The translations under genes were made by a program, and so were the position numbers. Positions 183 to 13,012 of a stretch of 14,196 nucleotides of DNA are shown one piece after another. Position 1 is the first letter of the stretch. Every line of letters begins with the position of its first letter. Origin of the DNA: Anaerolineae bacterium (GTDB taxonomy: Bacteria; Chloroflexota; Anaerolineae; UBA1429); the NCBI GenBank assembly GCA_007123335.1, contig SKLG01000440.1, positions 1 to 14,196 on the forward strand, read 5' to 3'. The notes under the pieces are model-generated. The model was not told the DNA's origin, did no database searches, and saw only the letters and a program-made list of their open reading frames with translations.

Positions 183-959
183 TTACTGCTGTATGACGTT
201 GTCGGGCAACTGGCCGGTCTCGTCAGACATCCCCGAGCGAGCCACGCGAGCCAGCACCACGCCCAGCTCGTAGAGCAAATAGAGCGGGATCATGACGATG
301 AACATGTTGATCGGGTCGGGCGTGGGCGTGACAAAGGCGGCGATGATAGAGGTCGCCACGATGGCATATCTGCGCGCTTTGGCCAGCATTTCGGCGGTGA
401 CGATATTCAGCTTGGCCAGGAAGAACATGAGCAAGGGCGTCTGGAAGACGATGCCCATCCAGAATAGGACGCGGGTAACAAAGTCGATATAGTTATCCAA
501 CGTCCACTGGTTCTGGACGATATGGCTCAAAAATCCTTGCATGAAGGTGATGGCCACCGGCAGCATGATGAGCGCGGCAAAGGCTACACCCCCTGAAAAA
601 CAGATCGTCACGCCAGGCAAGAGAAAATAGAGATACTTTTTCTCATGGGGTAGCAAGCCAGGCAAGATAAAGCGAATGACCTGATACACGATGACCGGCA
701 TCGATAGCATGGTACCGCCGATGAGGGCGATGCGGAAATAGACCACAAAGGTCTCGGTCGGATAGATCGTCTGCGGAATGGATCCCCCCAGCGGCAGAAT
801 CAAGATTTGCAGTGCTTGCGGTGTAAAGGCGACACTAATCGCTGTAGCGATCACAAAGGCGATGGACGCCTTGAAGAGTCGTCCGCGCAGCTCCGCAAGG
901 TGTTCCCATATGGTCAGTTCTTGGTCGGTAGCCGTATTAGTAGCCATCTCAGTAGCCAT
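183..959 (-). CDS. tatC: Twin-arginine translocase subunit TatC
   Basis: 258-aa polytopic membrane protein. The N-terminus contains ELTIWEHLAELRGRL and the overall hydrophobic pattern fits TatC. ATG at 959 is preceded by GAGGAA 5 nt upstream, 2 nt after the tatA stop, suggesting translational coupling. Confidence 0.9.
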   Translation of the reverse strand: MATEMATNTATDQELTIWEHLAELRGRLFKASIAFVIATAISVAFTPQALQILILPLGGSIPQTIYPTETFVVYFRIALIGGTMLSMPVIVYQVIRFILPGLLPHEKKYLYFLLPGVTICFSGGVAFAALIMLPVAITFMQGFLSHIVQNQWTLDNYIDFVTRVLFWMGIVFQTPLLMFFLAKLNIVTAEMLAKARRYAIVATSIIAAFVTPTPDPINMFIVMIPLYLLYELGVVLARVARSGMSDETGQLPDNVIQQ

Positions 960-961
960 GA

Positions 962-1762
962 TTATTCCTCACTCCGAGAGACGCCGGTGCTCTCCGCCTG
1001 TGGCTCGACAGTATCATGATCTGCCGTCTCGACATCCTCAGGCTGCGCCTCGGCGCCATTACCGTCCTGTGGAATGACATTGGCACCTGCGTCCTCTTGA
1101 GCACTCGAAGCAGTATCAGTAATAGGATTATCGTCGTCCTCATCATCGTTCACCACCATGGGCCCCATGACGGTGGGCTCGATGAGTTCAATATCTACAT
1201 CCTCCGGCTCGCGATCCTCAGGCACCAGCAGAGCAGTGTGAATGAGAACCGGGGCCACATGTTCCATTTGTGCAGACGAGGGAGCAAAAGGCGATGCCTC
1301 TTGGGTCGTCTTGCTATCCAGCTCGCCCTCTAGAAGGGGAGCGCCAGCGCTCACCATAGCTCGAGCCGGGGCAGGGAATCTCGATCGTCCGGTTGTGCCC
1401 TGGACCTCGGCAGCGGCGCCTTCGATGGCCTGCCCGATCTGGCCGGCCTCCTGCTGAAGTTCGGTAGCCGTGCCTTCCAGCACATTGCCGATCTGCTGGG
1501 CTTCTTCCTGGACCTCGGTGGCCGTGCCTTGCAGCACGTCGCCGAGCTCGCCGGCTTCGCGCTTGGCCTCATCCAGAGCTTCTTGAAGCTCCTCAAGGCT
1601 CAGCGCCTCGCGAAACTCTTGAGACATGCTGTCGGTCTGCTGACGCAACTTGGCCACCATGCGCCCCAGTTGCCCGGCCAGCTCAACCATCTTTTCTGGG
1701 CCGACAACCAGTGCGGTGATCACCAAGATCGCAATGATCTCGCCAGTACCTATTCCAAACAT
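962..1762 (-). CDS. tatA: TatA/TatB-family Sec-independent translocase protein with a long atypical C-terminal extension (266 aa). The core MFGIGTGEIIAILVITALVVGPEKM is followed by three 18-aa repeats and a D/E-rich tail.
   Basis: MFGIG...GPEK is the TatA/B N-terminal TM and hinge signature. I place the start at ATG 1762 (GGGAGG 12 nt upstream), not at the TTG of the track ORF at 1786. The gene sits directly upstream of tatC. Confidence 0.8.
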   Translation of the reverse strand: MFGIGTGEIIAILVITALVVGPEKMVELAGQLGRMVAKLRQQTDSMSQEFREALSLEELQEALDEAKREAGELGDVLQGTATEVQEEAQQIGNVLEGTATELQQEAGQIGQAIEGAAAEVQGTTGRSRFPAPARAMVSAGAPLLEGELDSKTTQEASPFAPSSAQMEHVAPVLIHTALLVPEDREPEDVDIELIEPTVMGPMVVNDDEDDDNPITDTASSAQEDAGANVIPQDGNGAEAQPEDVETADHDTVEPQAESTGVSRSEE

Positions 1763-1845
1763 TAGCTGATGGGACCTCCCGATCAACTCTGATGGTTCAA
1801 CGATAAAGGTGTATCATGTGGTGCATGGCGCAGGTCCCTTGATAG

Positions 1846-2313
1846 TCAGTCGCCGCCGGGGCTCGGAGCGTGCTGAGAGGTCTTTTCGCGGTCCAAATGC
1901 GCGAGGATGCTCTGTTGATGGGTCATCAAAGTACCCAGGACACCATTCACAAAGCGCCCCGAACTCTCGCTGCCAAAAAGCTTGGCCAACTCGACGGCCT
2001 CATTGATGGCAACCTTGGACGGTGTTTCTTCACTAAAAGCGAGCTCAAAAGTCGCCAAACGCAAAATAGCCCGATCCACTGGCGCAATCTGGTCGATAGG
2101 CCATTCGGGTGCAATACGTTCCAGGATGGCATCCAGCGTTTCGAGGTGCTGCAACACGCCATCCACAAGGCGACGGCAGAACGCTTCGCCCTCGGCGGCC
2201 AATTGCTGATCCGTCAGCCGCTCGCGAAGGGCCTTGCCCGGATGATGTCCGGTCACGTCCACCTCAAAGAGCACCTGAAAGGCCATGATCCGCGCTCGTC
2301 GTCTGACCTTCAC
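1846..2313 (-). CDS. nusB: Transcription antitermination factor NusB
   Basis: N-terminal RRRARIMAFQVLFEVD matches the NusB RRxARExAlQaLy motif. The internal ATG falls inside that motif, so the start is GTG at 2313, with GGGGTGA 4-5 nt upstream. Length 155 aa. Confidence 0.85.
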   Translation of the reverse strand: MKVRRRARIMAFQVLFEVDVTGHHPGKALRERLTDQQLAAEGEAFCRRLVDGVLQHLETLDAILERIAPEWPIDQIAPVDRAILRLATFELAFSEETPSKVAINEAVELAKLFGSESSGRFVNGVLGTLMTHQQSILAHLDREKTSQHAPSPGGD

Positions 2314-2334
2314 CGATTCACCCCGCTCGCCACG

Positions 2335-2688
2335 CTATTCTTCGTTCTCAATCAAGGTTTCAACATCCTCGATGTGAACATTCACGGCGAGCACCGGCAT
2401 GCCGATCATATCTTGAATGGCCCGTGATACCCTCGCCTGGATCTCACGCCCCAGCTCATAGAGGTTGACGTTCTTGGCGGCGGTGATGTGCAGATCCACC
2501 GAGACGGCATCATCCACGACCTGGATGCGCACGCCATCTCCGGCGCTCTTGCCTTTGAGCCAACGATTCACATCGCTGGGCAGGGCACGGTGCATGGCCA
2601 CAACTCCTGACACGGCCAGAGTCGCCAAACGGGCGCTGGTGGCCAGCACCTGAGGCGAAATGCGCACGGCTCCCAGTCTGTTTGCCAT
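2335..2688 (-). CDS. Asp23/Gls24 family (alkaline shock protein 23-like) protein
   Basis: MANRLGAVRISPQVLATSARLATLAVSGVV... is typical of the Asp23/DUF322 family. ATG at 2688 has GGGAGG 6 nt upstream. The Asp23-nusB adjacency is conserved in Firmicutes and Chloroflexi. Confidence 0.8.
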   Translation of the reverse strand: MANRLGAVRISPQVLATSARLATLAVSGVVAMHRALPSDVNRWLKGKSAGDGVRIQVVDDAVSVDLHITAAKNVNLYELGREIQARVSRAIQDMIGMPVLAVNVHIEDVETLIENEE

Positions 2689-2763
2689 GTTGTGCCTCCC
2701 GCTTATGCTGGCAACGCGCACAAGGCCCGATGCCGGGCCTGTGGCCTCGTCGCCGGGAAATGA

Positions 2764-2794
2764 CAAGGGCCGCGTCGAGCATCAGACGCCCTTG
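2764..2794 (-). terminator. Possible attenuator or weak terminator hairpin between rpmF and the Asp23 gene. The 7-bp stem CAAGGGC/GCCCTTG has a 17-nt loop and is followed on the minus RNA by UCAUUUCCC.
   Basis: Inverted repeat seen directly. The U-tract is weak and the loop is long, so this is low confidence. Confidence 0.25.
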
Positions 2795-2817
2795 CACGAG
2801 CCATCTGTATCGCGACC

Positions 2818-3003
2818 CTATTCGTTCTCGACCTCAAGCACCTGCACGCCAGCATAGCTGCCACAGGAGGGGCATACATGATGGGGCATATGCATCTCGC
2901 GGCATGACTGGCACACGACCAACTTGGTCGGCTTGAGGGCGTGATGGGCACGTCGGCGCCGCGTACGACCCCTGGACTGTTTTCTTTTAGGTAGAGGTGT
3001 CAT
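2818..3003 (-). CDS. rpmF: 50S ribosomal protein L32
   Basis: 61 aa with MTPLPKRKQSRGRTRRRRAHHAL and a CxxC...CxxC zinc-ribbon remnant (CQSC...CPSC). AAAGGAA lies 9 nt upstream of ATG 3003. It sits immediately downstream of yceD, as in the conserved yceD-rpmF unit. Confidence 0.9.
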   Translation of the reverse strand: MTPLPKRKQSRGRTRRRRAHHALKPTKLVVCQSCREMHMPHHVCPSCGSYAGVQVLEVENE

Positions 3004-3046
3004 GGTTCAGTTCCTTTCAATGAGCATTCCCCTCAAAGGGGTTGAT

Positions 3047-3583
3047 TTATTCTTGATCTGGCTGGTCCAACAACTGGGCCAGGGCCGAGAGCCGAGGGTC
3101 GATCACATCCCTTTGGCAACCACAAGGTTCAAGGTTCAAGTTCTTGCCGCAAATAGGACAAAGCCCTTCGCAATCCGAACGGCACAAACCTGGCGAAGTG
3201 CCAGCCACAATGACATACTGACGCAAGACTTCGCTCATATCCAGCATATGGTGCTCGTCGATGATCAGCTCGGGCTCATCCTCGTCGGTAATGGGCAACG
3301 TGGCGCCGGTATCAATATCGATGGAAGGGATAAACTCTTCTTCGATCTCAAACTCGACCTCTGTAGCCATCGGCTCCAGGCAACGCCGGCATATCTGCTG
3401 GATGTTCATTTGAGCATTGCCCGTCACCAGAATACCTTTAGGGGTGCGCACAAAGAGCAACTCGCCCTCTACATGGGTAACCCCTGGATTGAGCGCGTCG
3501 ATGTCGCGAAGGTCGCCCGATATCGTACGCCGACGCGACGCGCCAACGCCCTCTTTGAGCAATTGAGCGACATTATATATCAT
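3047..3583 (-). CDS. yceD: YceD/DUF177 family protein (large ribosomal subunit accumulation protein)
   Basis: 178 aa with an acidic middle and a C-terminal Cys cluster (CRSDCEGLCPICGKNLNLEPCGC) typical of DUF177. AGAGG lies 5 nt upstream of ATG 3583. Position upstream of rpmF is conserved. Confidence 0.85.
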   Translation of the reverse strand: MIYNVAQLLKEGVGASRRRTISGDLRDIDALNPGVTHVEGELLFVRTPKGILVTGNAQMNIQQICRRCLEPMATEVEFEIEEEFIPSIDIDTGATLPITDEDEPELIIDEHHMLDMSEVLRQYVIVAGTSPGLCRSDCEGLCPICGKNLNLEPCGCQRDVIDPRLSALAQLLDQPDQE

Positions 3584-3645: not shown

Positions 3646-3841
3646 AAAAAATGAGTAGCCAGCCCAACGTAACGTCGCTCTCTGGCCAAAAGAGAGCACA
3701 CGGTGCCTTTCTAAGGCAATAGTGCGCACTGTTTCGGCACCCCTGCTATCTTGGTGCCTCTGGCACGGGGGCGTTCGCCCGGCTGCTCTGGTCCGAGACG
3801 GTGCCCTGGCGCCGATTCTAACCATAAAGGAGTTCTCGTCT

Positions 3842-4537
3842 GTGTCCAAACAAGAGATGTCGCCTAGCAGGTACCGTCGTCTGTGGCGCGGCCTCAAGGC
3901 CACCGCGCCGCTGGCTCTGGGCGTGGCCCCCTTTGGCGTCGCCTTTGGCGCCGTGGCCGATGGGGCCATGGCCGGCTGGCAGGCGATGTTCATGTCCTCG
4001 ACGGTCTTTAGCGGCACCGCCCAGTTCGTCTGCGCCAGCATGCTGGCGCAGGGCGCGACCGCCGTGCCCATCGTGCTCACCGGCGTGCTGATCAACATGC
4101 GCATGTTGCTGATGAGCGCCGCCATCACCCCCCACGTCAAGGATGCGCGCCCGGCGCTCTATCCGCTGCTGGCCCATCTGCTCACCGACGAGAGCTTTGC
4201 CGTGAGCATGGCCGAGTTTGAGGCGCGCTCCGGCGACCCCTGGTTTTACGTCGGCTCGGGGTTGGCCATCTGGGGCATCTGGCAGCCGGCGACACTGATC
4301 GGGCTGTTCTTTGGGGCCGCCATTCCTCAGGGCGTGGGCCTCGAGTTCGCCCTGCCGGCCAGCCTCATCGTGCTCCTCTTTTTGCTGCTGCGCGATCGCC
4401 TTCAGGTGGCCACCGCGATGGGTGCCGCGCTGCTCTGTATCGCGCTGCGCCCGCTGGTGTCAGGCACCTGGAGCGCCACCGTCGCCACACTGGCGGCGGC
4501 CACCCTGGCCATGGTCCTCAAGGGAGCGCGGCGATGA
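3842..4537 (+). CDS. azlC: AzlC-family branched-chain amino acid transport permease
   Basis: Hydrophobic protein with LALGVAPFGVAFGAVA...FMSSTVFSGTAQFV, typical of AzlC. The start is probably GTG 3842 (AAGGAG 9 nt upstream) or ATG 3857. The track ORF start at 3722 is very likely non-coding. Confidence 0.8.
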   Translation: MSKQEMSPSRYRRLWRGLKATAPLALGVAPFGVAFGAVADGAMAGWQAMFMSSTVFSGTAQFVCASMLAQGATAVPIVLTGVLINMRMLLMSAAITPHVKDARPALYPLLAHLLTDESFAVSMAEFEARSGDPWFYVGSGLAIWGIWQPATLIGLFFGAAIPQGVGLEFALPASLIVLLFLLLRDRLQVATAMGAALLCIALRPLVSGTWSATVATLAAATLAMVLKGARR

Positions 4538-4884
4538 GCGCGGCGACAAGCGCTGGCACGCACACGGTAACGTGGCTGATCGTAGCGCTGGCGGCGGGCA
4601 CGCTGATCTGGCGCCTGCTACCGCTGGCGGCGCTCAGCCGGACGAGCCTGCCGCGCTGGGCGGAGGAATGGCTGCGGCTGGTGCCGGGAGCCATCCTCGC
4701 CGCATCGCTGGCCCAGAGCCTGCTGGTGCAGGAGGAGCAACTGACCCTCACCTGGCGCAACCCTTATCTCCTCGCCGCTCTGCCGGCGTTTTTGGTGGCC
4801 TGGCGCACCCGCAACGTGCTGCTGACCATGGCGTGCGGCATGGCCGGCTTTGTGGCCTCCAACTACTTCTTGCGGCTCCTCTGA
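4534..4884 (+). CDS. azlD: AzlD-family branched-chain amino acid transport protein
   Basis: 116-aa small hydrophobic protein. Its ATG overlaps the azlC stop (ATGA at 4534-4537), and the azlC-azlD pairing is conserved. Confidence 0.75.
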   Translation: MSAATSAGTHTVTWLIVALAAGTLIWRLLPLAALSRTSLPRWAEEWLRLVPGAILAASLAQSLLVQEEQLTLTWRNPYLLAALPAFLVAWRTRNVLLTMACGMAGFVASNYFLRLL

Positions 4885-4892
4885 GCCAGCCC

Positions 4893-5792
4893 CTACTCGA
4901 TAGGCACAGCGTGCCTCTCAACATAATCCGACACGCGCCGGTCGGGGCGCCGCGTCAAGTAATAGAACGCCTCGGCGTATTCCAGCCCATGGGCCTCGCC
5001 GAGGGCGCGGTATTCGTCGAGCTGAAAGAGGCGGATATAGGCGCGGTCGGCCTCCTCATCGCTGCCGTCGAGGGCGGGCAGGCGCAAGCCACGGGCGGCC
5101 AGCTCGTCGCGCAGGCGTGAGCCCTGGGAGCCACCGGGCCCTTGCGACTTGTTGGCGCTGATGGCGGCGACCTTTTGCGCCATCCAGGGGCCGATATCGA
5201 CGACGCGGTTGTAGGGCTGCCCCTCTCTGGCCACCCAGTAGTAACGCTCGGTTACCGATTTGGGCTTGAGCCCGGCGGCCAGGTGTTCGGGATAGTCCTT
5301 GTCCATCCCCGCCATCCAACACGCCGCCTCTACCGCCTGGCCGGTGATGGTGTGGTCGGGGTTCTCCTCGTCCTGGCCCCAGGGGTTAAAGGTGAACACG
5401 GTATCCACCTGGAGCAGGCGAAATAAAAAGATCAGCCGCGCGCGCAGCTCCAGCGGTGACGCCTCATCGAGGCGATGGTTGCGGTAGCTCAGGTGAAAGA
5501 TCCCCTTGAACCCCAACGCCTGGGCCAACGTCTCTACCTCACGCTCGTTACTGAGCACCGTCTCGCCGATGCTGGGCGTGGGGCCGCACTTTTCGTCGTT
5601 GGTGGTCTGGATCAGGTAGGCGTCATAGCCCTCGGCGATGAGCTTGGCCACCGCGCCGGCGCAGAAAAAGGGGATGTCGTCGGCGTGAGCCTGCACGGCG
5701 GCCAGCACCTTGCCGCGATGGGGCTGCCCCTGGGCAGGGCGCTCGATGACCACCTGCCCCTGCGACACGCCATGGTGCTCGATACGTCCCAT
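4893..5792 (-). CDS. PIG-L/LmbE family N-acetylglucosaminyl deacetylase with N- and C-terminal extensions
   Basis: KVLAAVQAHADDIPFFCAG...DAYLIQTTNDE matches the LmbE AHPDDE-type zinc-binding N-terminal motif. ATG at 5792 has AAGGAG 9 nt upstream, embedded in the dinB 3' end with a 4-nt gap, consistent with translational coupling. Confidence 0.8.
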   Translation of the reverse strand: MGRIEHHGVSQGQVVIERPAQGQPHRGKVLAAVQAHADDIPFFCAGAVAKLIAEGYDAYLIQTTNDEKCGPTPSIGETVLSNEREVETLAQALGFKGIFHLSYRNHRLDEASPLELRARLIFLFRLLQVDTVFTFNPWGQDEENPDHTITGQAVEAACWMAGMDKDYPEHLAAGLKPKSVTERYYWVAREGQPYNRVVDIGPWMAQKVAAISANKSQGPGGSQGSRLRDELAARGLRLPALDGSDEEADRAYIRLFQLDEYRALGEAHGLEYAEAFYYLTRRPDRRVSDYVERHAVPIE

Positions 5793-5796
5793 AATC

Positions 5797-7020
5797 CTAT
5801 ACTCCTTCCGTCGGGTCCGGCTCCTCTGGCCGGTGTTGACGGCGCAACAGCGCCGCGCGGGTGATGGCCTCGTCGCCAAAGCGGTCGCGGATCTCGTCCA
5901 ACGCCTGATTCAGGCGGATGCGCCGCTGGTCGTCGCGCTCAAAGAGGGTGAGCTGGTAGCCGGCCTCGTCCAGCAGCCCATCCACCCCCACTCCCAGCAG
6001 ACGCAGCGGGCGCCCGGCCGTCCAATGGGCATCCAGGAGACGTCGGGCCGCTTCATAGATAGCCTCGGGCTGATCGGTGGGTTGCGCCAGGGTCTCCTGG
6101 CGGGTCTGGGTGACGAAATCAGGATCGCGCAGCTTGATGCGCACCGTCTGCGCCACCCAGCCGCGACGGCGCAAGCGTGCGGCCACCGCCTCGCTCATGC
6201 GCAGCATGGTGCGCTCCAAGAAGAGGCGGTCGGCGACATCGTGGGCAAAGGTCTGTTCCTGGCTGATGGACCGCCGCTCGCTACCTGGCTGGACGGGGGA
6301 ATCATCCAGCCCCTGAGCGCGACGCCACAGGCCGCGACCGTGACGCTCGCCGAGGGTGCGCACGGCGCGCTCCTCGTCCCAGGCGGCCAGATCGCCAATG
6401 GTGGCGATGCCCAACGCCCGCAGCCGGCGCCCGGTGACCTGACCCACGCCCCACAGTGTCTCAATGGGCCGTGGCGCCAAAAAGGCGGCCTCCTCCCCCT
6501 GGGGCACGAGCACCAGCCCCTGAGGTTTGCCGGCGTCGCAGGCGATCTTGGCCACCAGGCGATTGGCGGCGATGCCCACCGAGATGGGCAGCCCCTGCTC
6601 TTCGCGCACACGGCGCTGAATGAGCCGTCCGATGGCCTCGGGCGGCCCCCAGAGGCGCTCGCAGCCGGTCACATCGAGAAAGGCCTCGTCGATGGAAATC
6701 TGCTGCACCGCCGGGGTGATCTCGTAGAGGATATCCATCACGGCGTGGGAGTGCCTGCTATACTCTTGATGGCGCCCCGGGACGACGATGGCCTGAGGAC
6801 AGAGGCGCAGCGCCTGGGCCATGGGCATGGCCGAGCGCACGCCGTAGGCCCGCGCGGCATACGACGCAGAGGAGACCACGCCGCGACCCTCGGGCCGCCC
6901 ACCGACGACCAGCGGCTTGCCGCGCAGCGCCGGGTTGAGCAGTTCCTCCACCGAGGCGAAAAAGGCATCGAGGTCGACGTGCATGATCCAGCACGCAACC
7001 GCAGGCCCGCCAGTGGTCAC
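5797..7020 (-). CDS. dinB: DNA polymerase IV (Y-family translesion polymerase DinB)
   Basis: N-terminal IMHVDLDAFFASVEELL..RGKPLVVGG is the Y-family catalytic motif I, and the thumb and little-finger regions are recognisable. GTG at 7020 has GAGGTGG upstream. ATG at 6984 has no SD and sits inside the conserved I-L/M-H-V-D segment. Confidence 0.85.
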   Translation of the reverse strand: MTTGGPAVACWIMHVDLDAFFASVEELLNPALRGKPLVVGGRPEGRGVVSSASYAARAYGVRSAMPMAQALRLCPQAIVVPGRHQEYSRHSHAVMDILYEITPAVQQISIDEAFLDVTGCERLWGPPEAIGRLIQRRVREEQGLPISVGIAANRLVAKIACDAGKPQGLVLVPQGEEAAFLAPRPIETLWGVGQVTGRRLRALGIATIGDLAAWDEERAVRTLGERHGRGLWRRAQGLDDSPVQPGSERRSISQEQTFAHDVADRLFLERTMLRMSEAVAARLRRRGWVAQTVRIKLRDPDFVTQTRQETLAQPTDQPEAIYEAARRLLDAHWTAGRPLRLLGVGVDGLLDEAGYQLTLFERDDQRRIRLNQALDEIRDRFGDEAITRAALLRRQHRPEEPDPTEGV

Positions 7021-7038
7021 ACAGCCACCTCGACGTGT

Positions 7039-8286
7039 TTACCCATCCTCAGGCTCAAAGACGGTCAGCTCGACCTGTAGGAACTCAAAAACGGCGTCGG
7101 GCAGGTCGGCATCGGCGCGATAGCGATAGTCGATGATCCGCGCCTCCAAGCGCAGAGAGAGGGTCTCCAACTCGATGACCGCGCCGGGCCGGGCCACGAT
7201 CAGCTCGCCCTTTTCCTCCAACCGCTGGCGCAGTTCGTCGTCGTCCAGGACCAGATCGCTGACGATGACTTTGGAGACGGTGCGGATATCGCCCTTGTCA
7301 AAGAGCCAGACCTCAAACGCGTCGATCTGCTGCCCCCCCTCATCGACCTCGAGGATATCGGCCACGCTGAGGCCGCACTCGCCGAGAAACTCGCCGTCGC
7401 TCGACTCGATGCTATAGGATACATCGAGGTCATCGTCGCCATACTGATATTCGGCCTCGAAACGGACGACGGCATTATCTGGCAACAAAGGCGTGGGCCG
7501 ACTGGGCGAGGTCGCAACGGGGCTCACCGTCGGCCGATCCTCCTGCTGGTCCAACGCCTCCCAGGCATACTCGGCCTCGTCCTCCTCCACAGCGTGTATA
7601 ACCTGGGGAGCTGCAGGGGATGAGGACGCAGGCGGCGCCTGCTGCGGGGGAAAGGGCGGCGGCGCGTGGCGCTGCTCCTCAAAGCGATCCTCGGCAACCG
7701 GCTCGTTGGCGCGGGGCGTGGTCGCGCTGTATCCCGGCCCTCGGGTGGCGTGGTAAGGGGGACTCTGCGCCGTGGCCATGCTGCCACTGATGATCGTTAC
7801 CGCTAACCAGATGATGAGGACCAACCCGATGAAAAGGGCCAGGATCGAGCCGGCGATCAGCAAGCCATTGGACATCCCCGGCGGGATGACGCTCGCCGGC
7901 GGGCGCACCGCCACCTCCTCTCCGGTGGGCTGCGGCAAATCGAGGGACTGGGCCATGCGCCGCAGACGCAGCGCACCGGCGGTGTCCTCGGCGCGATCGC
8001 GGTTGACGGCGGCCTGCTCGATGAGGTTGGCCACCCATTGCCAATCGGTCTGCTCGTCGATCAGAGCCGAGAGCCGCTGACGGGCCACGTCTACGTCTCC
8101 GGTGACGGCGAGGGAGTCAGAGGCCATGATCACCCAGGAGAACTGGTGTTGCAGACGCATATCGGAGGGGTCGGTGTCGTACCAGGTGACGGGCCACACC
8201 CGCCAGCCCATAAAGAGGCCGACACCGATACCGACGAGGATCGATAACGCAATGATGGGCAAGACCAATCTGCGCGCACCGTTCAT
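7039..8286 (-). CDS. Hypothetical two-TM membrane protein (415 aa). It has an N-terminal TM, a ~110-aa extracytoplasmic loop, a second TM, a Pro-rich linker and a ~150-aa acidic C-terminal domain. It is the first gene of an operon with dinB.
   Basis: ATG at 8286 with AAAGGAGAGG 7 nt upstream. Predicted TM segments are LVLPIIALSILVGIGVGLFMGW and LLIAGSILALFIGLVLIIWLAVTIISG. Codon usage matches the host. No family recognised. Confidence 0.6.
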   Translation of the reverse strand: MNGARRLVLPIIALSILVGIGVGLFMGWRVWPVTWYDTDPSDMRLQHQFSWVIMASDSLAVTGDVDVARQRLSALIDEQTDWQWVANLIEQAAVNRDRAEDTAGALRLRRMAQSLDLPQPTGEEVAVRPPASVIPPGMSNGLLIAGSILALFIGLVLIIWLAVTIISGSMATAQSPPYHATRGPGYSATTPRANEPVAEDRFEEQRHAPPPFPPQQAPPASSSPAAPQVIHAVEEDEAEYAWEALDQQEDRPTVSPVATSPSRPTPLLPDNAVVRFEAEYQYGDDDLDVSYSIESSDGEFLGECGLSVADILEVDEGGQQIDAFEVWLFDKGDIRTVSKVIVSDLVLDDDELRQRLEEKGELIVARPGAVIELETLSLRLEARIIDYRYRADADLPDAVFEFLQVELTVFEPEDG

Positions 8287-8380
8287 GTAACGCCTCTCCT
8301 TTCGTCAGCCCCCTTTTGGGCGGTGGGACCAGCGGCGATCCTGGCAAGCCATGCCATCGGAGCGACCGTGTTGGCGCATT

Positions 8381-8409
8381 CTACTATTAGGGCCACGGCT
8401 TTTCAATCT
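8381..8409 (-). promoter_or_regulatory. Candidate sigma70 promoter for the hypothetical-dinB-PIG-L operon. TTGAAA is at 8409..8404, followed by a 17-nt spacer and TAGAAT at 8386..8381.
   Basis: Reverse complement reads TTGAAAagccgtggccctaatagTAGAATgcgcc. The -10 lies ~95 nt upstream of ATG 8286. Confidence 0.45.
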
Positions 8410-8433
8410 TGTTGTCACTGGAGTGTAATCGCT

Positions 8434-8461
8434 TTGAGCTTTGGGTGCAAAGTGGTATAAT
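8434..8461 (+). promoter_or_regulatory. Sigma70 promoter with extended -10 driving the small ORF, and antisense transcription into the SPFH gene. TTGAGC is at 8434-8439, followed by a 14-nt spacer, TG at 8453-8454 and TATAAT at 8456-8461.
   Basis: The sequence ...gctTTGAGCtttgggtgcaaagTGgTATAATggag gives a perfect TGnTATAAT. It is arranged back-to-back with the minus-strand operon promoter ~25 bp away. Confidence 0.5.
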
Positions 8462-8513
8462 GGAGACAGAACATATGTGCGCACGGAATCATGAGCGCAT
8501 GGGAGGATTCGCG

Positions 8514-8762
8514 ATGTATTGGAATAACGGCCCACGTAGTGAGACATACCTTCGCGCAGATCTTGCGGACATCCTCAAAGCCATCGCCCGCGCCGGGGCT
8601 GGACCGACGCGAAGCAGCATTACCCTTCGGGAGGCGGATTACGCCGACGGATTTCGGGCGGCCATTGAGGCTATGGCTGCTGCCCTTGGGTTGCCCGTCG
8701 ATCTGCCAGCGCCTAGAAAGCGGGTACAACAGAAGGATTTGAGATTGCCGTCAGGACGGTGA
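8514..8762 (+). CDS. Small hypothetical protein (82 aa; MYWNNGPRSETYLRADLADILKAIARAG...) in the low-GC island. It has no TM segment and no recognised family. An alternative start is ATG 8475 (95 aa).
   Basis: GGGAGG lies 7 nt upstream of ATG 8514, and the extended -10 promoter is ~50 nt upstream. The ORF converges on the SPFH gene, with the 3' ends overlapping by 12 nt (8751-8762). Coding status is not proven; the transcript could act mainly as an antisense RNA. Confidence 0.45.
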   Translation: MYWNNGPRSETYLRADLADILKAIARAGAGPTRSSITLREADYADGFRAAIEAMAAALGLPVDLPAPRKRVQQKDLRLPSGR

Positions 8763-9848
8763 GAGGCCCACATATCTACGCAAAGCCATCAAAGCCTGCA
8801 CTACGTCGGCAGTGAGTGGATAGCTGGCAGTCCGTGGATCATGAGCAAGGCATTCTAGGATCCGACGCAATACCTCTCGTTGCATATCGGCATCAGACAT
8901 CTTCATTTCTCGAGCGATGCGGTAGGCATCTGCGATGACAGACAGCGTGTCGCGGTAAGTGCTCGCCTTCGCTAGCTCCATGTCACTGCCAATTCTCGCC
9001 CAATTCGCAGCCTGAAGCAGCCTGTCATCCGGCTGCACATCGAGTACGGAGACGCGGCTGACTCGAATACCATAGGTATTGAGTCTGGCGTTAGCATTCG
9101 CTCGCACTTGCTGGCTCAAAGCATCGACGGATGCGGGTCCGAGGATGCCGTCGAGCCTATAGTTAACCACGGCCTGACGTAGGCTTCGCTCAATCTCCTC
9201 TTGAACAGCCTTTTTCCATTCCGGCATCTCGGTGCACATTCTGAGGATCATGTTCCGTTCAGCGGTTGCCATCGGTATCTCGCCACGAGCGGTCTTGGGC
9301 GATACCGCTATGCCATAGGTTACCGAGAGTTCCACCTGCGTGGGGATGCGTTCGGCGGTGAGAATGTGGTCGTAGGTCAGCGTCTCTTGGCAGGGCCGCA
9401 GATCGAATAGATGACGCACATATTCCCAAGCATCGGTATTGATAAAGCCCGGCCCGCTGACCCGCGTGTATCGAGCGCCCCGGTAAAAGACAGCAGCGCT
9501 ACAGCGCACAATCACAAAGCGAGGTCCAGTGATGGACGCATCGTCTACGTCATGCGGTAGGATTGTGTGGCCGTCTTCAATAATATGAACACCACGACTC
9601 AATCCGAGTAGCATCTTGATGATGGTACCAATGGCAATGGACGAACTCATTCCATAGAGCGGAGCTATGGTCGAGGCTAGAACTACAAGGCTCACAGCTG
9701 CTCCGGAGAGCAGACTTAACGTGATGATGACAAAGACATCCCGATCTGTAGGAGCCACAAGAAATATTCGCAGGAGCATATAGAGAGCTGCTAGCGCTAC
9801 TACCCCTATCAGAAGTCTTCTGATCGTCTGGAAATGAGCTTGTAGCAT
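8751..9848 (-). CDS. SPFH/band-7 (stomatin/prohibitin/HflKC-like) domain membrane protein, 365 aa. It has two N-terminal TM helices, an SPFH core and a C-terminal helical region. It is encoded in a low-GC island with foreign codon usage.
   Basis: Core segments RGARYTRVSGPGFINTDAWEYVRHLFDLRPCQETLTYDHILTAERIPTQVELSVTYGI and LDGILGPASVDALSQQVRANANARLNTYGIRVSRVSVLDVQPD match the SPFH pattern (rlG..r.l.PG.hf.iP..d.v..vDlR.q....v.T.D...v.vd..v.y.I ... ldell..R..i......l......GI.V..v.i.di.P). ATG at 9848 has GGGAGG 5 nt upstream. Codons such as CTA, ATA and AGA are frequent here, unlike in neighbouring genes. Confidence 0.75.
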   Translation of the reverse strand: MLQAHFQTIRRLLIGVVALAALYMLLRIFLVAPTDRDVFVIITLSLLSGAAVSLVVLASTIAPLYGMSSSIAIGTIIKMLLGLSRGVHIIEDGHTILPHDVDDASITGPRFVIVRCSAAVFYRGARYTRVSGPGFINTDAWEYVRHLFDLRPCQETLTYDHILTAERIPTQVELSVTYGIAVSPKTARGEIPMATAERNMILRMCTEMPEWKKAVQEEIERSLRQAVVNYRLDGILGPASVDALSQQVRANANARLNTYGIRVSRVSVLDVQPDDRLLQAANWARIGSDMELAKASTYRDTLSVIADAYRIAREMKMSDADMQREVLRRILECLAHDPRTASYPLTADVVQALMALRRYVGLSPS

Positions 9849-9915
9849 ATTGGCCTCCCGGAGTGGCTATTCGCAGACCAAAGAGGCGAGCATAGATCAG
9901 CAGTTCGATGGCAAT

Positions 9916-9944
9916 AGTATAATAGCAGCCCAGCCCGATAGCAA
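9916..9944 (-). promoter_or_regulatory. Candidate sigma70 promoter for the SPFH gene. TTGCTA is at 9944..9939, followed by a 17-nt spacer and TATACT at 9921..9916.
   Basis: Reverse complement reads gtgcTTGCTAtcgggctgggctgctatTATACTattgcc. The -10 lies ~68 nt upstream of ATG 9848. Confidence 0.4.
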
Positions 9945-9947
9945 GCA

Positions 9948-9972
9948 CTGCGTAAAGACGGCCTTTACGCAG
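9948..9972 (-). terminator. Perfect 10-bp inverted repeat CTGCGTAAAG-acggc-CTTTACGCAG overlapping the pepP stop codon (TAA, plus 9965-9967), located exactly at the island boundary. It may be a weak terminator for the pepP operon or an insertion-site scar.
   Basis: Seen directly. On the minus RNA the hairpin is followed by UGCUUGCUAUC, which is only moderately U-rich. Confidence 0.35.
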
Positions 9973-11056
9973 CGCCCGGCGTCGCCGATCCGGCCACCGG
10001 CACCTTCTCCACGGCGGTGAGCATCCGACATCCGCTCTCCTCCACCACCACCATGTCCTCGATGCGCACGCCGCCCCAGCCGGGGATATAGACGCCGGGC
10101 TCGACGGTGAGGACGCTGCCCGCCGGCAGGTCTCCCTCGGCCAAAAAGCTGGCCCGTGGCTCTTCATGGATGGCCAGGCCCACGCCGTGGCCCAGCCCGT
10201 GGCCGAACTGGCCCTCGTATCCGGCGGCATAGAGGATGCGCCGGGCGATGGCGTCGGCCTCCACGCCCGACATCCCGGCATGAATGCCCTCCTCGGCGGC
10301 GAGCTGGGCCTCGAGCACCTTGTCCCACACCTCGCGATAGCGGGCGTCGGCGCGGCCCACGCAAAAGGAGCGGGTGAGGTCCGAGCAGTAGCCGTCCACC
10401 ACGCAGCCCATGTCGATCACCACCGGATCGCCGAGCCCGATCTCGCGCCCGCCGGTGACGGCGTGGGCCATGGCGCCGTGCGGCCCCGAGGCGACGATGG
10501 TGGGGAAGGAGAGGCTCTCGGCGCCACGGGTGCGCATGGCCACCTCCAGCTCCCAGGCCACCTCGCGCTCGGTGAGGCCGGGGCGAATCCACTCCATGAT
10601 GTGGGCCATGGCCTCGTCGGCCAGGCGCACGGCGGCGTTGATGGCGGCGATCTCGTCGTCATCCTTGACCACCCGCAGCCCCTCGACGATGTTCTCGGTG
10701 GGATGCCATTCGATGGCGTCACCCAACGCCTCGCGCCAGCGATCATAGGTCTGCACCGTAACGGCGTGTCGCTCAAAGCCCAGCGTCCGGTATCCCCGCT
10801 GACGGACCAGCTCGGCCAGCGCCGCATGCGCCGCGCCGGTGACCTCGACCAGCGCGCACATGGGCGCCTGCTGGCGCACCTGCTCATAGTAGCGAAAATC
10901 GGTGAGCATCGAGGCCTGGGCCTCGTCGATGACCAACACCCCGGCCGAGCCGGTAAAGCCGCTGAGATAGCGACGGTTTTCGGGCTGGGTGATGATTAAC
11001 GCATCATAAGGCTGGGCGGCCATGATCTCGCGCAAGCGCGCCAGGCGATCGTTCAT
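9965..11056 (-). CDS. pepP: M24B family Xaa-Pro aminopeptidase (creatinase-like N-terminal domain plus pita-bread metallopeptidase domain)
   Basis: 363 aa. Metal-binding and catalytic motifs include DMGCVVDGYCSDLTRSF, GHGLGHGVGLAIHEEP and VLTVEPGVYIPGWGGVRIEDMVVV. The symbol pepP is from family resemblance only; PepQ is not excluded. Confidence 0.85.
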   Translation of the reverse strand: MNDRLARLREIMAAQPYDALIITQPENRRYLSGFTGSAGVLVIDEAQASMLTDFRYYEQVRQQAPMCALVEVTGAAHAALAELVRQRGYRTLGFERHAVTVQTYDRWREALGDAIEWHPTENIVEGLRVVKDDDEIAAINAAVRLADEAMAHIMEWIRPGLTEREVAWELEVAMRTRGAESLSFPTIVASGPHGAMAHAVTGGREIGLGDPVVIDMGCVVDGYCSDLTRSFCVGRADARYREVWDKVLEAQLAAEEGIHAGMSGVEADAIARRILYAAGYEGQFGHGLGHGVGLAIHEEPRASFLAEGDLPAGSVLTVEPGVYIPGWGGVRIEDMVVVEESGCRMLTAVEKVPVAGSATPGAA

Positions 11057-11086
11057 TGGGTTGCTCCGTTCATCGTGCTCGGCGGC

Positions 11087-11548
11087 TCACTCGCCGCGAA
11101 AGGGGACCTGAAGACGCTCCTCCTCGATCAGCGTGACGAGGATGCGCACGGTGCGCTCGACGACATCGCCACAGCGCTTCTCAGCCTCGGGCTGCGTATC
11201 GCGAAGCGGCTCGCAGATCGTCTCGCCAAACTCTTCCAGGAACTGCTCGCGGAATCGCTTGGCCAGAGCATAAACCCGCTCGTCGTCCTCTTTGGCCGAC
11301 ACACGGCCCCACAAGGCGCCGAGGAGCAACACACCCCCGGCCAGGGCGCCGCACAGCTCCAACCGACTGCCGCCCACGCCGCCGCCAAAGGTATCGCTGG
11401 CCCGCACCAGAACGTCGGGCAGAGGGTTCATATAGTGTTCGCCCACGGCGATCACCACCGACTCGGATCAATGGTGCCCGGCCAGATAGGCGTCCCTGGC
11501 CTTTGCGGACACCTCCTCGATCACGGCAACGCGCTCTTGGTCGGCCAT
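11087..11548 (-). CDS. C_GCAxxG_C_C family (putative redox-active) protein with an in-frame TGA at 11470..11468, at the position of the first conserved Cys. It is either a candidate selenoprotein (153 aa if TGA is read as Sec) or a nonsense-disrupted pseudogene.
   Basis: ATG at 11548 has AAGGAG 6 nt upstream and opens 26 codons (MADQERVAVIEEVSAKARDAYLAGHH), then TGA, then SESVVIAVGEHY...GGGVGGSRLELCGALAGG...ETICEP...KRCGDV in frame. GHH-[TGA]-SESVV.A.GE aligns with the family motif G-x-N-C-A-(Q/E)-S-V-l-x-A-f-x-E. The track ORF start, GTG 11458, has no SD. Confidence 0.6.
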
Positions 11549-11583
11549 CTTTTTCTCCTTTGATGAGATATACGGATGTACGA

Positions 11584-12975
11584 TTAGCCCATGTCGCTAC
11601 GGTAGACCAGGCCGGCTCCCGCCGCCGACTGACAGGGAAAGACGGTGGCCGTCAGCCCCGTGCGCTGCCGATAGCCTCGGGTGACCGCCTGGGCAAAGGC
11701 CGCGACCTGCTCCTGCGCCACCACGGCCACGATGCACCCGCCCCACCCGGCGCCGGTGAGCCGCGCGCCGACGGTTCCCGGCACCCCGTTGGCCAAATCC
11801 ACCAGCGCCTCGATCTCGGGGGTGCTGATCTCATAGTCGTCGCGGGCGCTGGCATGGGCTTGAGCGAGGAGCCGGCCAAAGGCGGCCATATCTCCCGCTT
11901 CTAGCGCCTCGACGCTGGCGAGAACGCGCCGGTTCTCGCTATGTACGTGGCGACAGCGACGCCGCACATAGAACCGATCGGTGTCGGGGGTGGCCGAGGT
12001 GGGTCCCGCCGGACCATCCAGAATGGTATCGGGATCGATGCCCAACCGCAACAGCTCATCGCGGTGGATCACCTCGGGCAGCAATGGCTCCAGCTCGGCC
12101 CAGGGCACCACCTGCACGTCGCGCAGGTGGGTGATCGACGCCTCCGGCTGATGCCGCTGCAACAGGCGCACGCCGATGCGCCCCTCGGCGACGCGCCGGT
12201 TAAAGAGCGGGCCGGTGTTGTGATGGCGCACACCGCTATCGACCACCAGCACCGCATAGCCCCCGGCGCCGATGGAGACATGGCGATAGTCATATGCGTT
12301 GGCGCCACCATCCGCACGCGGCCGGCAATCGAGAAAGAGGGCGTGGTCGCGGCGCGCCAGGATCGAGATGAACTGATCCATGATCCCGCCACGGGTGCCG
12401 ACATACCACTCGGCGCGCCCGCAGGCATCGGCCAGCTCTGGGCCGGCGAGATCGATATCGTTCAGCGCGACCAACGCCACGGCGGTGGCGACGGTCAGCG
12501 CCGAGGAGGAGGAGAGCCCGGCGCCGCGAGGCACCCCAAAAGGCGGCGCGCCGTCCACCAGGCCATCAAAGCCGCTCAAGCCGGGACCATATTCCTGCTC
12601 CAGCAACTGGGCCGGCCCCTGGGCATAGTTGGCCCAATCGCCGAGGCTCGCGCGGGGGATGTCCTGGGCGATATCGAAGCGCCTGTCGCCATAGCCCTCC
12701 TCGATGTTGCTCAGGCGCACCGCGCCGTCGTCGCGGGGGCGTGCCAGAAGCAGGACATCCTTGTCCAGCGCCATGGGCAGCACAAAGCCATGGTTATAAT
12801 CGGTGTGCTCGCCGATGAGATTCACCCGCCCCGGCGCATGAAAGACGCACACCTGGCCCGGCCCATAACGCTCCTTAAAGGCGTCCAGCGCCCGCCGATA
12901 GCGGGCAGCTTGCGCGGCCTCGGCAGCGGCGCCATAGGTCTGGCGCAAGGCAGAGATCATATCCATCGTCAGCAT
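11584..12975 (-). CDS. galK: Galactokinase (GHMP kinase family)
   Basis: PGRVNLIGEHTDYNHGFVLPMA is the galactokinase signature, and GAGLSSSSALTVA is the GHMP ATP-binding motif. ATG at 12975 has GGGAGG 6 nt upstream; the GTG at 12981 is too close to the SD. Confidence 0.85.
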   Translation of the reverse strand: MLTMDMISALRQTYGAAAEAAQAARYRRALDAFKERYGPGQVCVFHAPGRVNLIGEHTDYNHGFVLPMALDKDVLLLARPRDDGAVRLSNIEEGYGDRRFDIAQDIPRASLGDWANYAQGPAQLLEQEYGPGLSGFDGLVDGAPPFGVPRGAGLSSSSALTVATAVALVALNDIDLAGPELADACGRAEWYVGTRGGIMDQFISILARRDHALFLDCRPRADGGANAYDYRHVSIGAGGYAVLVVDSGVRHHNTGPLFNRRVAEGRIGVRLLQRHQPEASITHLRDVQVVPWAELEPLLPEVIHRDELLRLGIDPDTILDGPAGPTSATPDTDRFYVRRRCRHVHSENRRVLASVEALEAGDMAAFGRLLAQAHASARDDYEISTPEIEALVDLANGVPGTVGARLTGAGWGGCIVAVVAQEQVAAFAQAVTRGYRQRTGLTATVFPCQSAAGAGLVYRSDMG

Positions 12976-13012
12976 CGCCACCCTCCCTCACACGCGATCC
13001 GGGCGCTCCGCG

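Follow-up and report, generated by a model that had tools for sequence, protein, structure and literature searches.

The contig SKLG01000440.1 of an Anaerolineae bacterium, analysed over a stretch of 14,196 nucleotides (nt; hereafter the window), contains two convergent genes between a gene for an M24 Xaa-Pro peptidase (pepP-like) and a gene for an orphan membrane protein of 415 amino acids (aa). One of them, on the forward strand (positions 8514-8762), encodes a soluble protein of 82 aa that belongs to an unannotated family. The other, on the reverse strand (8751-9848), encodes a 365-aa membrane protein of the SPFH/Band-7 type. The results presented below show that this pair (the cassette) is a genuine recurring two-gene module and that both open reading frames (ORFs) are functional genes under purifying selection, and they indicate that the small gene is very probably controlled by the SOS response through a LexA-type operator. 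This operator was overlooked in a preliminary description of the same DNA and is the most informative clue to function. Taking all evidence together, we consider it probable, with considerable reserve, that the locus is a conserved module in which the small protein is the SOS-inducible partner of a membrane-bound SPFH scaffold.

The 365-aa protein matched the Pfam family Band_7 (PF01145) with an E value of 8.5e-12 and a score of 45.9 bits (cutoff 23.6). Two hydrophobic segments are present at its N-terminus (residues ~12-32 and 39-62; helices 2-29 and 36-64 in the AlphaFold2 (AF2) model). Its layout consists of these two transmembrane (TM) helices, the SPFH domain, a long coiled-coil-like helix, and a helical C-terminal tail that is conserved across lineages. 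From the two N-terminal TM helices the SPFH domain is predicted to be cytoplasmic, and the protein is predicted to be a membrane-anchored scaffold facing the cytoplasm. When its model was used as a Foldseek query, the top 50 matches were all stomatin, prohibitin, flotillin, HflK/C, erlin or vault structures (E to 4e-8). No NCBIfam SPFH model was matched, none of the HflK/C, QmcA, YqiK and FloA/FloT subfamilies fits the protein, and a sequence search of the PDB produced nothing below E 0.29. A search of 5.8 billion proteins gave only three homologues, and a deeper profile search gave the same three; this word-indexed search undercounts the family, having missed the SPFH partners of loci L024 and L027 described below.

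The 82-aa protein had no match in Pfam, PADLOC, NCBIfam or PHROGs and no specific fold match, and Pfam scans of 18 members of its family at E <= 1 did not point to any consistent family. In particular, no profile match was obtained to YnzC/DUF896, DinI, SulA or LysM, nor to any helix-turn-helix (HTH) or ribbon-helix-helix (RHH) family. The AF2 model (pLDDT 75) predicts a hairpin of two helices (residues 8-28 and 38-58) followed by a basic, disordered tail, and the protein lacks a TM segment (maximum hydropathy 1.18). An exhaustive profile search of 1.8 billion representatives yielded 19 members at E <= 1e-3, with lengths of 60-95 aa, and thus the family is rare. In two of them (P0017 and P0024) the hairpin unit is duplicated in tandem within a single protein, and another (P0012) keeps the first 37 residues only and then diverges, suggesting a copy with a frameshift. 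The possibility that the small protein mimics the C-terminal tail of the SPFH protein was rejected (profile-profile probability 0.9%). That both ORFs are functional genes follows from their ratios of nonsynonymous to synonymous divergence (dN/dS), which are ~0.3 for the SPFH gene and 0.08-0.18 for the small ORF.

The small gene is preceded by the ribosome binding site (RBS) GGGAGG (8501-8506, forward strand), which lies 7 nt before the ATG and is conserved in relatives, and by a strong promoter of the sigma-70 type with the sequence TTGAGC-16-TATAAT and a TG-extended -10 (8434-8461, forward strand), the hexamers of which are conserved in L012, L010 and L011. On the reverse strand, a promoter-like site TTGCTA-17-TATACT (9916-9944) is followed by a 5′ untranslated region (UTR; 9849-9889) with its own RBS GGGAGG (9854-9859). 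The SPFH promoter is kept in L002 and not in L012. Both promoter-like sites, the RBS of the small gene, the two-TM SPFH protein, the lack of a recognisable family for the 82-aa ORF, and the convergence of the two genes with a 12-nt overlap of their 3′ ends (8751-8762) had been noted in the preliminary description, and direct inspection of the sequence together with the searches above bears them out.

Evidence that the two genes belong together came from distant homologues of the small protein. P0011, P0013 and P0015 are each encoded convergently with a Band_7 gene, in three unrelated contexts (L023/L024, L027 and L028). The Band_7 partners in L024, L027 and L028 pass the Pfam threshold, that of L028 with an E value of 1.3e-5. 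The SPFH protein of L024 is 42% identical to that of the window over 314 aa (E 4e-85), a region that includes the C-terminal tail, and the one of L027 is ~30% identical. The L023/L024 pair has the composition of its neighbours, which are ordinary metabolic genes. The spacing of the 3′ ends varies, with overlaps of 12 nt in the window and 23 nt in L028 and gaps of 17, 34 and 200 nt elsewhere. Hence the orientation is conserved but the overlap is not, and an obligatory antisense mechanism based on the overlap is therefore not indicated. The idea of a two-component cassette is thus upheld by the recurrence of the pair.

A candidate LexA-type operator (Cheo box), AGAACATATGTGCG, is located at positions 8468-8481, at a distance of 7 nt from the -10, and covers the presumed start of transcription of the small gene. 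Its core GAACATATGTGC (8469-8480) has one mismatch to GAAC-N4-GTTC. A perfect AGAAC-N4-GTTCT is present at the same promoter position in L012, L010, L011, L013, L014, L023-L026, L027 and L028. In the remote lineages L023, L027 and L028 the small gene is preceded by equivalent strong promoters. In four independent lineages, the promoters of which cannot otherwise be aligned, the distance from the -10 to the perfect box is 0-7 nt. In L023-L026 the sequence TATACT is followed after 6 nt by AGAACAAACGTTCT, in L028 the box is found 3 nt after TTGTCA-17-TAGAAT, and in L027 it directly follows TTGACA-17-AATAAT. The L027 box is contained in a perfect palindrome of 30 nt, GCAATAATAGAACAAGTGTTCTATTATTGC (L027:93-122), and the 5′ UTR of the small gene is ~200 nt long in L027 and ~190 nt in L028.

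The probability that such an operator is placed there by chance is ~1e-4 per lineage, and of the 13 perfect GAAC-N4-GTTC boxes found in 132 kb of loci, 12 are at the promoter of the small gene. A second perfect box of L024 (L024:3203-3214) lies within a region encoding a signal peptide and is regarded as a chance occurrence. Boxes with one mismatch occur in the window at chance frequency (3 observed, 3.5 expected); one of these is located in the SPFH promoter (9895-9906), but neither L012 nor L002 has kept it, and it was rejected as a chance occurrence. PMC4951493 gives GAAC-N4-GTTC as the LexA motif of Firmicutes and of Actinobacteria, Chloroflexi having variants of it, and the title of a work cited there reports a Gram-positive LexA binding sequence in Dehalococcoides. 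Among species representatives, the closest relative of a gene flanking the cassette is in an Anaerolineales metagenome-assembled genome (MAG).

These observations are compatible with the following scheme. In an undamaged cell, LexA bound to the operator would silence the small gene; the SPFH protein would meanwhile be produced and assemble at the membrane. Upon DNA damage, RecA-stimulated self-cleavage of LexA would free the promoter. The small protein would then accumulate and act on the SPFH assembly, most plausibly via the conserved C-terminal tail of the latter, which is lost together with the small gene in L002/L003, and the action of the scaffold at the membrane would be altered as a consequence. 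Convergent read-through transcription may in addition lower the level of SPFH mRNA, since no terminator is detectable between the two genes. Candidate outputs would be a checkpoint of the membrane, of a protease or of division linked to DNA damage, or a function in conflicts with phages or prophages; the last is favoured by the divergence of the alleles and by the phage homologues described below.

Several points weigh against this scheme. Both LexA as the factor that binds the operator, named from the motif by itself, and a physical contact between the small protein and the SPFH protein are proposals. The mismatch of the window operator, a T-to-G change in the second half-site (GTGC), is carried by all six contigs of the window allele, which come from different samples and all lack a perfect box, the box being perfect in all the other alleles; the window allele may therefore be repressed only weakly or leakily. 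The dinB gene of the window, located only 1.2 kb away, does not have a LexA-type box. The AF2 model of the SPFH protein is of low confidence (pLDDT 56; core 60-85), and the small protein is homologous neither to the SPFH tail nor to any known SPFH partner. Its relatives P0008-P0010 have no SPFH gene next to them, which suggests that the small protein can act without a neighbouring SPFH gene. Finally, a joint deletion in L002/L003 has removed the last ~65 codons of the SPFH gene along with the small gene and the promoter of the latter (L002:2170-2383), the truncated SPFH gene retaining a dN/dS of ~0.3; although this loss is an argument for the scheme, it could reflect mere adjacency.

The comparison of close relatives revealed an unusual divergence of the cassette. 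The window is identical to contigs of the NCBI MAG GCA_007128385.1 and of several metagenomes, and the order galK, GCAxxG, pepP, SPFH, small ORF, 415-aa gene is shared by close relatives. Every close relative sampled (L001/L012, L002/L003, L010, L011, L013 and L014) has the cassette at this site. For pepP and galK of these relatives, nucleotide identity is 93-99% and protein identity 93-95%, with a synonymous divergence (dS) of 0.15-0.21, and dS over all flanking genes is 0.15-0.30. The SPFH alleles, however, share only 47-61% protein identity and 58-81% nucleotide identity (in 100-nt windows), with dS of 0.9-1.3 and a nonsynonymous divergence (dN) of 0.29-0.40, and the small ORF alleles share 74-88% protein identity with dS of 0.8-0.9. 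The highly divergent block comprises the cassette and its promoters (8371-9990); part of it is lost in L002/L003 and it is absent from distant relatives. Its right border is sharp, identity rising from 53-79% to 94-98% around the pepP stop codon (~9950-10050), and its left border is at ~8370-8420. Low GC content at third codon positions (GC3) is not the cause of this divergence, because a low-GC3 control, the 178-aa gene beside galK, is 91% identical in relatives. The dN of the SPFH gene is higher than the dS of the flanks, and synonymous divergence in the cassette is 5-8 times as high as in the flanks; the cassette alleles are therefore much older than the genomes that surround them. The divergence stems either from recombinational import of divergent alleles or from a long-maintained polymorphism, and not merely from relaxed constraint.

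Such a contrast between cassette (dS 0.8-1.3) and flanks (0.15-0.3) in genomes that are 93-99% identical is typical of diversifying or frequency-dependent selection, and it is an argument for a first alternative, namely that the locus is a module for conflict with phages (for example by abortive infection, superinfection exclusion or the control of prophages) and may itself stem from a phage. The SPFH protein would then act at the membrane as effector or scaffold and the small protein as its trigger or inhibitor; phage homologues of the latter would serve as mimics or counter-measures. In line with this, at least two alleles of the small gene are present in one metagenome (L004 and L011, both from ERZ27301262), and the cassette has low GC3 and frequent rare codons. 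Moreover, the nearest relatives of the small protein outside the syntenic locus (P0008-P0010, 50-54% identity), which come from the same sample sets, are encoded in same-strand arrays of small genes that also include a gene for DNA polymerase A of phage type, for a DinG-like helicase or for the small subunit of a terminase. No operator palindrome is present upstream of these three genes.

Other results do not fit a role in phage conflict. PADLOC gave matches at noise level only (Csx16, E 0.034; 2TM effector, E 0.33), scans of IMG/VR, JGI metagenome contigs, isolate phages and plasmids did not reveal any relatives, and the window has no other defence genes nearby. No nuclease, protease or pore-forming effector domain is present, and the L023/L024 pair, as mentioned, has native composition and ordinary metabolic neighbours. 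We therefore regard a phage-conflict module as unlikely, if worth keeping in mind; it is compatible with SOS control and overlaps with the explanation that we prefer. A specific form of it, in which damage or phage/prophage activity derepresses the trigger so that the SPFH cage becomes the effector, and in which phage homologues hijack or neutralise the system, seems to us decidedly doubtful. The same degree of doubt applies to the effector state that it implies, which would be deregulation of the membrane or of a protease, growth arrest or abortive infection. If true, an arms race of this kind would explain the extreme divergence of alleles at a fixed site.

A second alternative is that the palindrome is the operator of another repressor, possibly of the small protein itself acting as autoregulator, and has no connection with DNA damage. 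The identity of the operator is read from a sequence motif, the small protein has two helices and a basic tail, the palindrome of L027 exceeds a minimal LexA site, and dinB of the window lacks a box. Against this, the AGAAC-N4-GTTCT core is invariant among lineages whose small proteins share only 37-45% identity, and it is the same as the LexA motif determined by experiment in related phyla. In addition, the small protein belongs to no HTH or RHH family, and its homologues in phage contexts lack the palindrome. Together this makes regulation by another repressor improbable.

We also considered that the small protein might be an SOS-induced inhibitor of division or growth, analogous to SulA, YneA, ChiZ or SosA, with the SPFH protein as its membrane receptor or as regulator of its turnover. 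SOS division inhibitors are small, lineage-specific and fast-evolving proteins. The LexA-type control of the promoter agrees with this, and SPFH complexes such as HflK/C, cryo-EM entries of which were among the fold matches of the 365-aa protein, regulate the membrane protease FtsH. Furthermore, in L028 the module adjoins a gene (L028:974-1615, reverse strand) that is divergent from the small-gene promoter, with its box at L028:1685-1696, and encodes a protein of 213 aa, the N-terminus of which is cytoplasmic and is followed by one TM helix, a Pro-rich linker and, at the C-terminus, a LysM domain. YneA and ChiZ, which inhibit division in the SOS response, have this TM plus LysM layout, and by this analogy the 213-aa protein may be the SOS division inhibitor of that organism; this also speaks for SOS control of the small gene. 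However, this would mean that L028 already has a separate candidate for such a role; besides, the small protein lacks a TM segment, unlike the inhibitors of Gram-positive bacteria, its gene was lost in L002/L003, and 19 clusters among 1.8 billion representatives would not be expected for a core checkpoint. A division inhibitor is accordingly a distinctly improbable explanation of the small protein.

The preliminary description had viewed the segment 8410-9965 as a horizontally acquired island of 45-50% GC in surroundings of 65-70%, with foreign codon usage. The measured GC of this segment is 54.4%, the lowest 200-nt windows being 49% and parts of it 59-61%, so that the dip was overstated. The value for the surroundings holds for ~3750-8250 and 10000-13000, the immediate neighbours having 64-69%, but not for a housekeeping block at 183-3583 (tatC, tatA/B, nusB, asp23, yceD and L32), which has a GC of 54-60% and a GC3 of 62-73%. 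The GC3 of the cassette genes is 56-58%, compared with 81-88% in pepP, galK, dinB and the 415-aa gene, and the SPFH gene has the lowest GC3 (56%) and the highest use of rare codons. As described, the codons CTA, ATA and AGA are enriched in the cassette (23 of 449 codons, versus 9 of 1983 in neighbouring genes; Fisher p = 4e-11), but TTA is not. The compositional dip is thus real but not decisive alone, because the housekeeping genes of the same window are equally GC-poor; this weakens composition as proof of a foreign origin, and the decisive evidence on the segment is comparative. The host genome is compositionally heterogeneous, the block at 183-3583 being well under the 64-69% GC of the central window.

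Comparative evidence was provided by two species-representative genomes that serve as distant outgroups (L015 and L016), one being an Anaerolineales MAG and one a MAG with the label delta proteobacterium. In both, pepP is immediately followed by a homologue of the 415-aa gene, and neither the SPFH gene nor the small gene is present within the 12-21 kb examined. The cassette was therefore inserted between originally adjacent genes in an ancestor of the clade, and it is an old insertion that is now fixed in position. Hence, the view of a horizontal island stands as far as an insertion relative to distant outgroups is concerned, but a recent or strain-specific acquisition does not, since all close relatives have the cassette at the same site and an empty site was seen only in L015 and L016. 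The same genes at the same place in orthologous genomes, with an NfeD partner nearby, had been named as evidence against acquisition; the former was found in close relatives, and an NfeD partner was not. As already noted in the preliminary description, integrase genes, tRNA genes and flanking direct repeats were not detected in scans of the window, and Rfam and tRNA scans were without matches.

That the cassette is a recent foreign island in which the SPFH gene is under cis-antisense control, the small ORF being mainly an antisense transcript, is very improbable: the 12-nt overlap without detectable terminator, the deviant GC3 and codon use and the empty site in outgroups would agree with it, but the cassette is shared by all close relatives, the overlap is not conserved, mobility genes are lacking, and the strong purifying selection on the small ORF at the protein level, along with its distant protein homologues, largely refutes it.

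The absence of NfeD had been taken as a sign of a non-standard band-7 module. Indeed, neither the small ORF nor any other ORF of the window matched NfeD, but most subfamilies of prokaryotic SPFH proteins (SPFH3, 4 and 6-12) normally lack such a partner, which is known for SPFH1, 2 and 5 only (PMC2636767). Horizontal acquisition of accessory SPFH genes is also documented (PMC2636767, PMC13086221). The SPFH-NfeD operons (PH1511/PH1510 stomatin-STOPP, QmcA-YbbJ, FloA/YqfA-YqeZ and FloT/YuaG-YuaF) resemble the present module in that the gene of an SPFH scaffold, with the same fold, N-terminal membrane anchor and C-terminal helical region, stands beside that of a much smaller partner. The partner described here differs, however, in being a soluble two-helix protein without NfeD/OB-fold or TM segment, and its gene is convergent with the SPFH gene instead of forming an operon with it and has a LexA-type operator.

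A second analogy is offered by HflK/C-FtsH and CIII of phage lambda, in which an inner-membrane SPFH complex is linked to a small helical phage protein. Structures of HflK/C-FtsH were among the Foldseek matches of the SPFH model. In contrast to that system, no FtsH gene is located nearby, there is a single SPFH gene and not an HflK/HflC pair, the SPFH domain is predicted to be cytoplasmic and not periplasmic as in HflK/C, and the small protein has no sequence similarity to lambda CIII.

SOS-induced small proteins (YneA/ChiZ/SosA/SulA, YnzC and DinI) likewise are products of small, lineage-restricted genes with a strong promoter overlapped by GAAC-N4-GTTC. YnzC, a small helical SOS protein of B. 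subtilis, has a helical hairpin and a disordered tail, as predicted for the 82-aa protein. Nevertheless, the latter has no Pfam match to DUF896 (YnzC), DinI, SulA or LysM and no TM segment, and pairing with an SPFH protein is not described for these proteins; our literature search found no paper linking LexA and SPFH proteins. LexA-controlled type I toxin-antitoxin and antisense loci (tisB/istR-1, symE/symR and dinQ/agrB) share SOS control and an overlapping neighbour on the opposite strand. In our case, however, the small protein is not hydrophobic or toxin-like, the partner is a gene for a 365-aa protein and not an sRNA, and the overlap is not conserved. Finally, replacement-type flexible genomic islands share the fixed site, the sharp boundaries, the lower GC and a divergence of alleles far above that of the flanks, but the block studied here is only ~1.6 kb long, has two genes, and lacks glycosyltransferases or surface-polysaccharide functions. 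The parts of the module are thus ordinary (an SPFH protein and a small ORF); what is new is their combination, with an unannotated partner family, conserved convergence, a LexA-type operator and divergent alleles at a fixed site.

SPFH scaffolds are universal, but little is understood of their bacterial functions and regulators; among their gene partners, only NfeD proteins and FtsH are well defined. A soluble partner that is conserved and induced by damage, if true, would provide a testable handle on the role of one SPFH subfamily, and would add a membrane branch to the SOS response of Chloroflexi-like bacteria, the SOS regulon of which has hardly been explored. With its phage-borne homologues and very divergent alleles, the locus is a candidate for an interface between host and virus. 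Limits to its value are the rarity of the family, all members of which are in uncultured organisms, and the fact that function is deduced.

Outside the module, the left flank consists of the gene for the 415-aa orphan membrane protein (7039-8286, reverse strand), followed by dinB. This protein contains two TM helices (one of them N-terminal), a Pro-rich linker that is variable, and a C-terminal domain that is conserved; it matched no family, and the dN/dS of its gene (0.3-0.5) is above that of its neighbours. The right flank is the pepP-like gene (9965-11056, reverse strand), the product of which is 94-95% identical to the copies of relatives. A 13-nt inverted repeat (9945-9975, reverse strand) spans the pepP stop codon, where it marks the sharp right-hand border of the divergent block, and directly adjoins the -35 hexamer of the SPFH gene. 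Although it lacks a T-run, it is possibly the pepP terminator. In L012 the spacer between pepP and the SPFH gene (L012:3190-3250) contains 2-3 tandem copies of a GC-rich, hairpin-forming unit, GGCGTCACGCCGCGCCT, which is absent from the window. The SPFH 5′ UTR is ~90% conserved among alleles, whereas the adjoining coding sequence is only 58-62% identical. A hairpin hiding the RBS (GCCUCU against GGGAGGC) was predicted in this UTR, but with z-scores of -0.6 to 0.1 and no covariation it was discarded.

A further observation concerns locus L024, in which a stretch of 3.6 kb (L024:3140-6787) with a GC of 53-56% lies beside the high-GC SPFH pair. It encodes orphan secreted, SAP-domain and zinc-ribbon proteins, is preceded by a FitA-like RHH gene, and may be a separate island.

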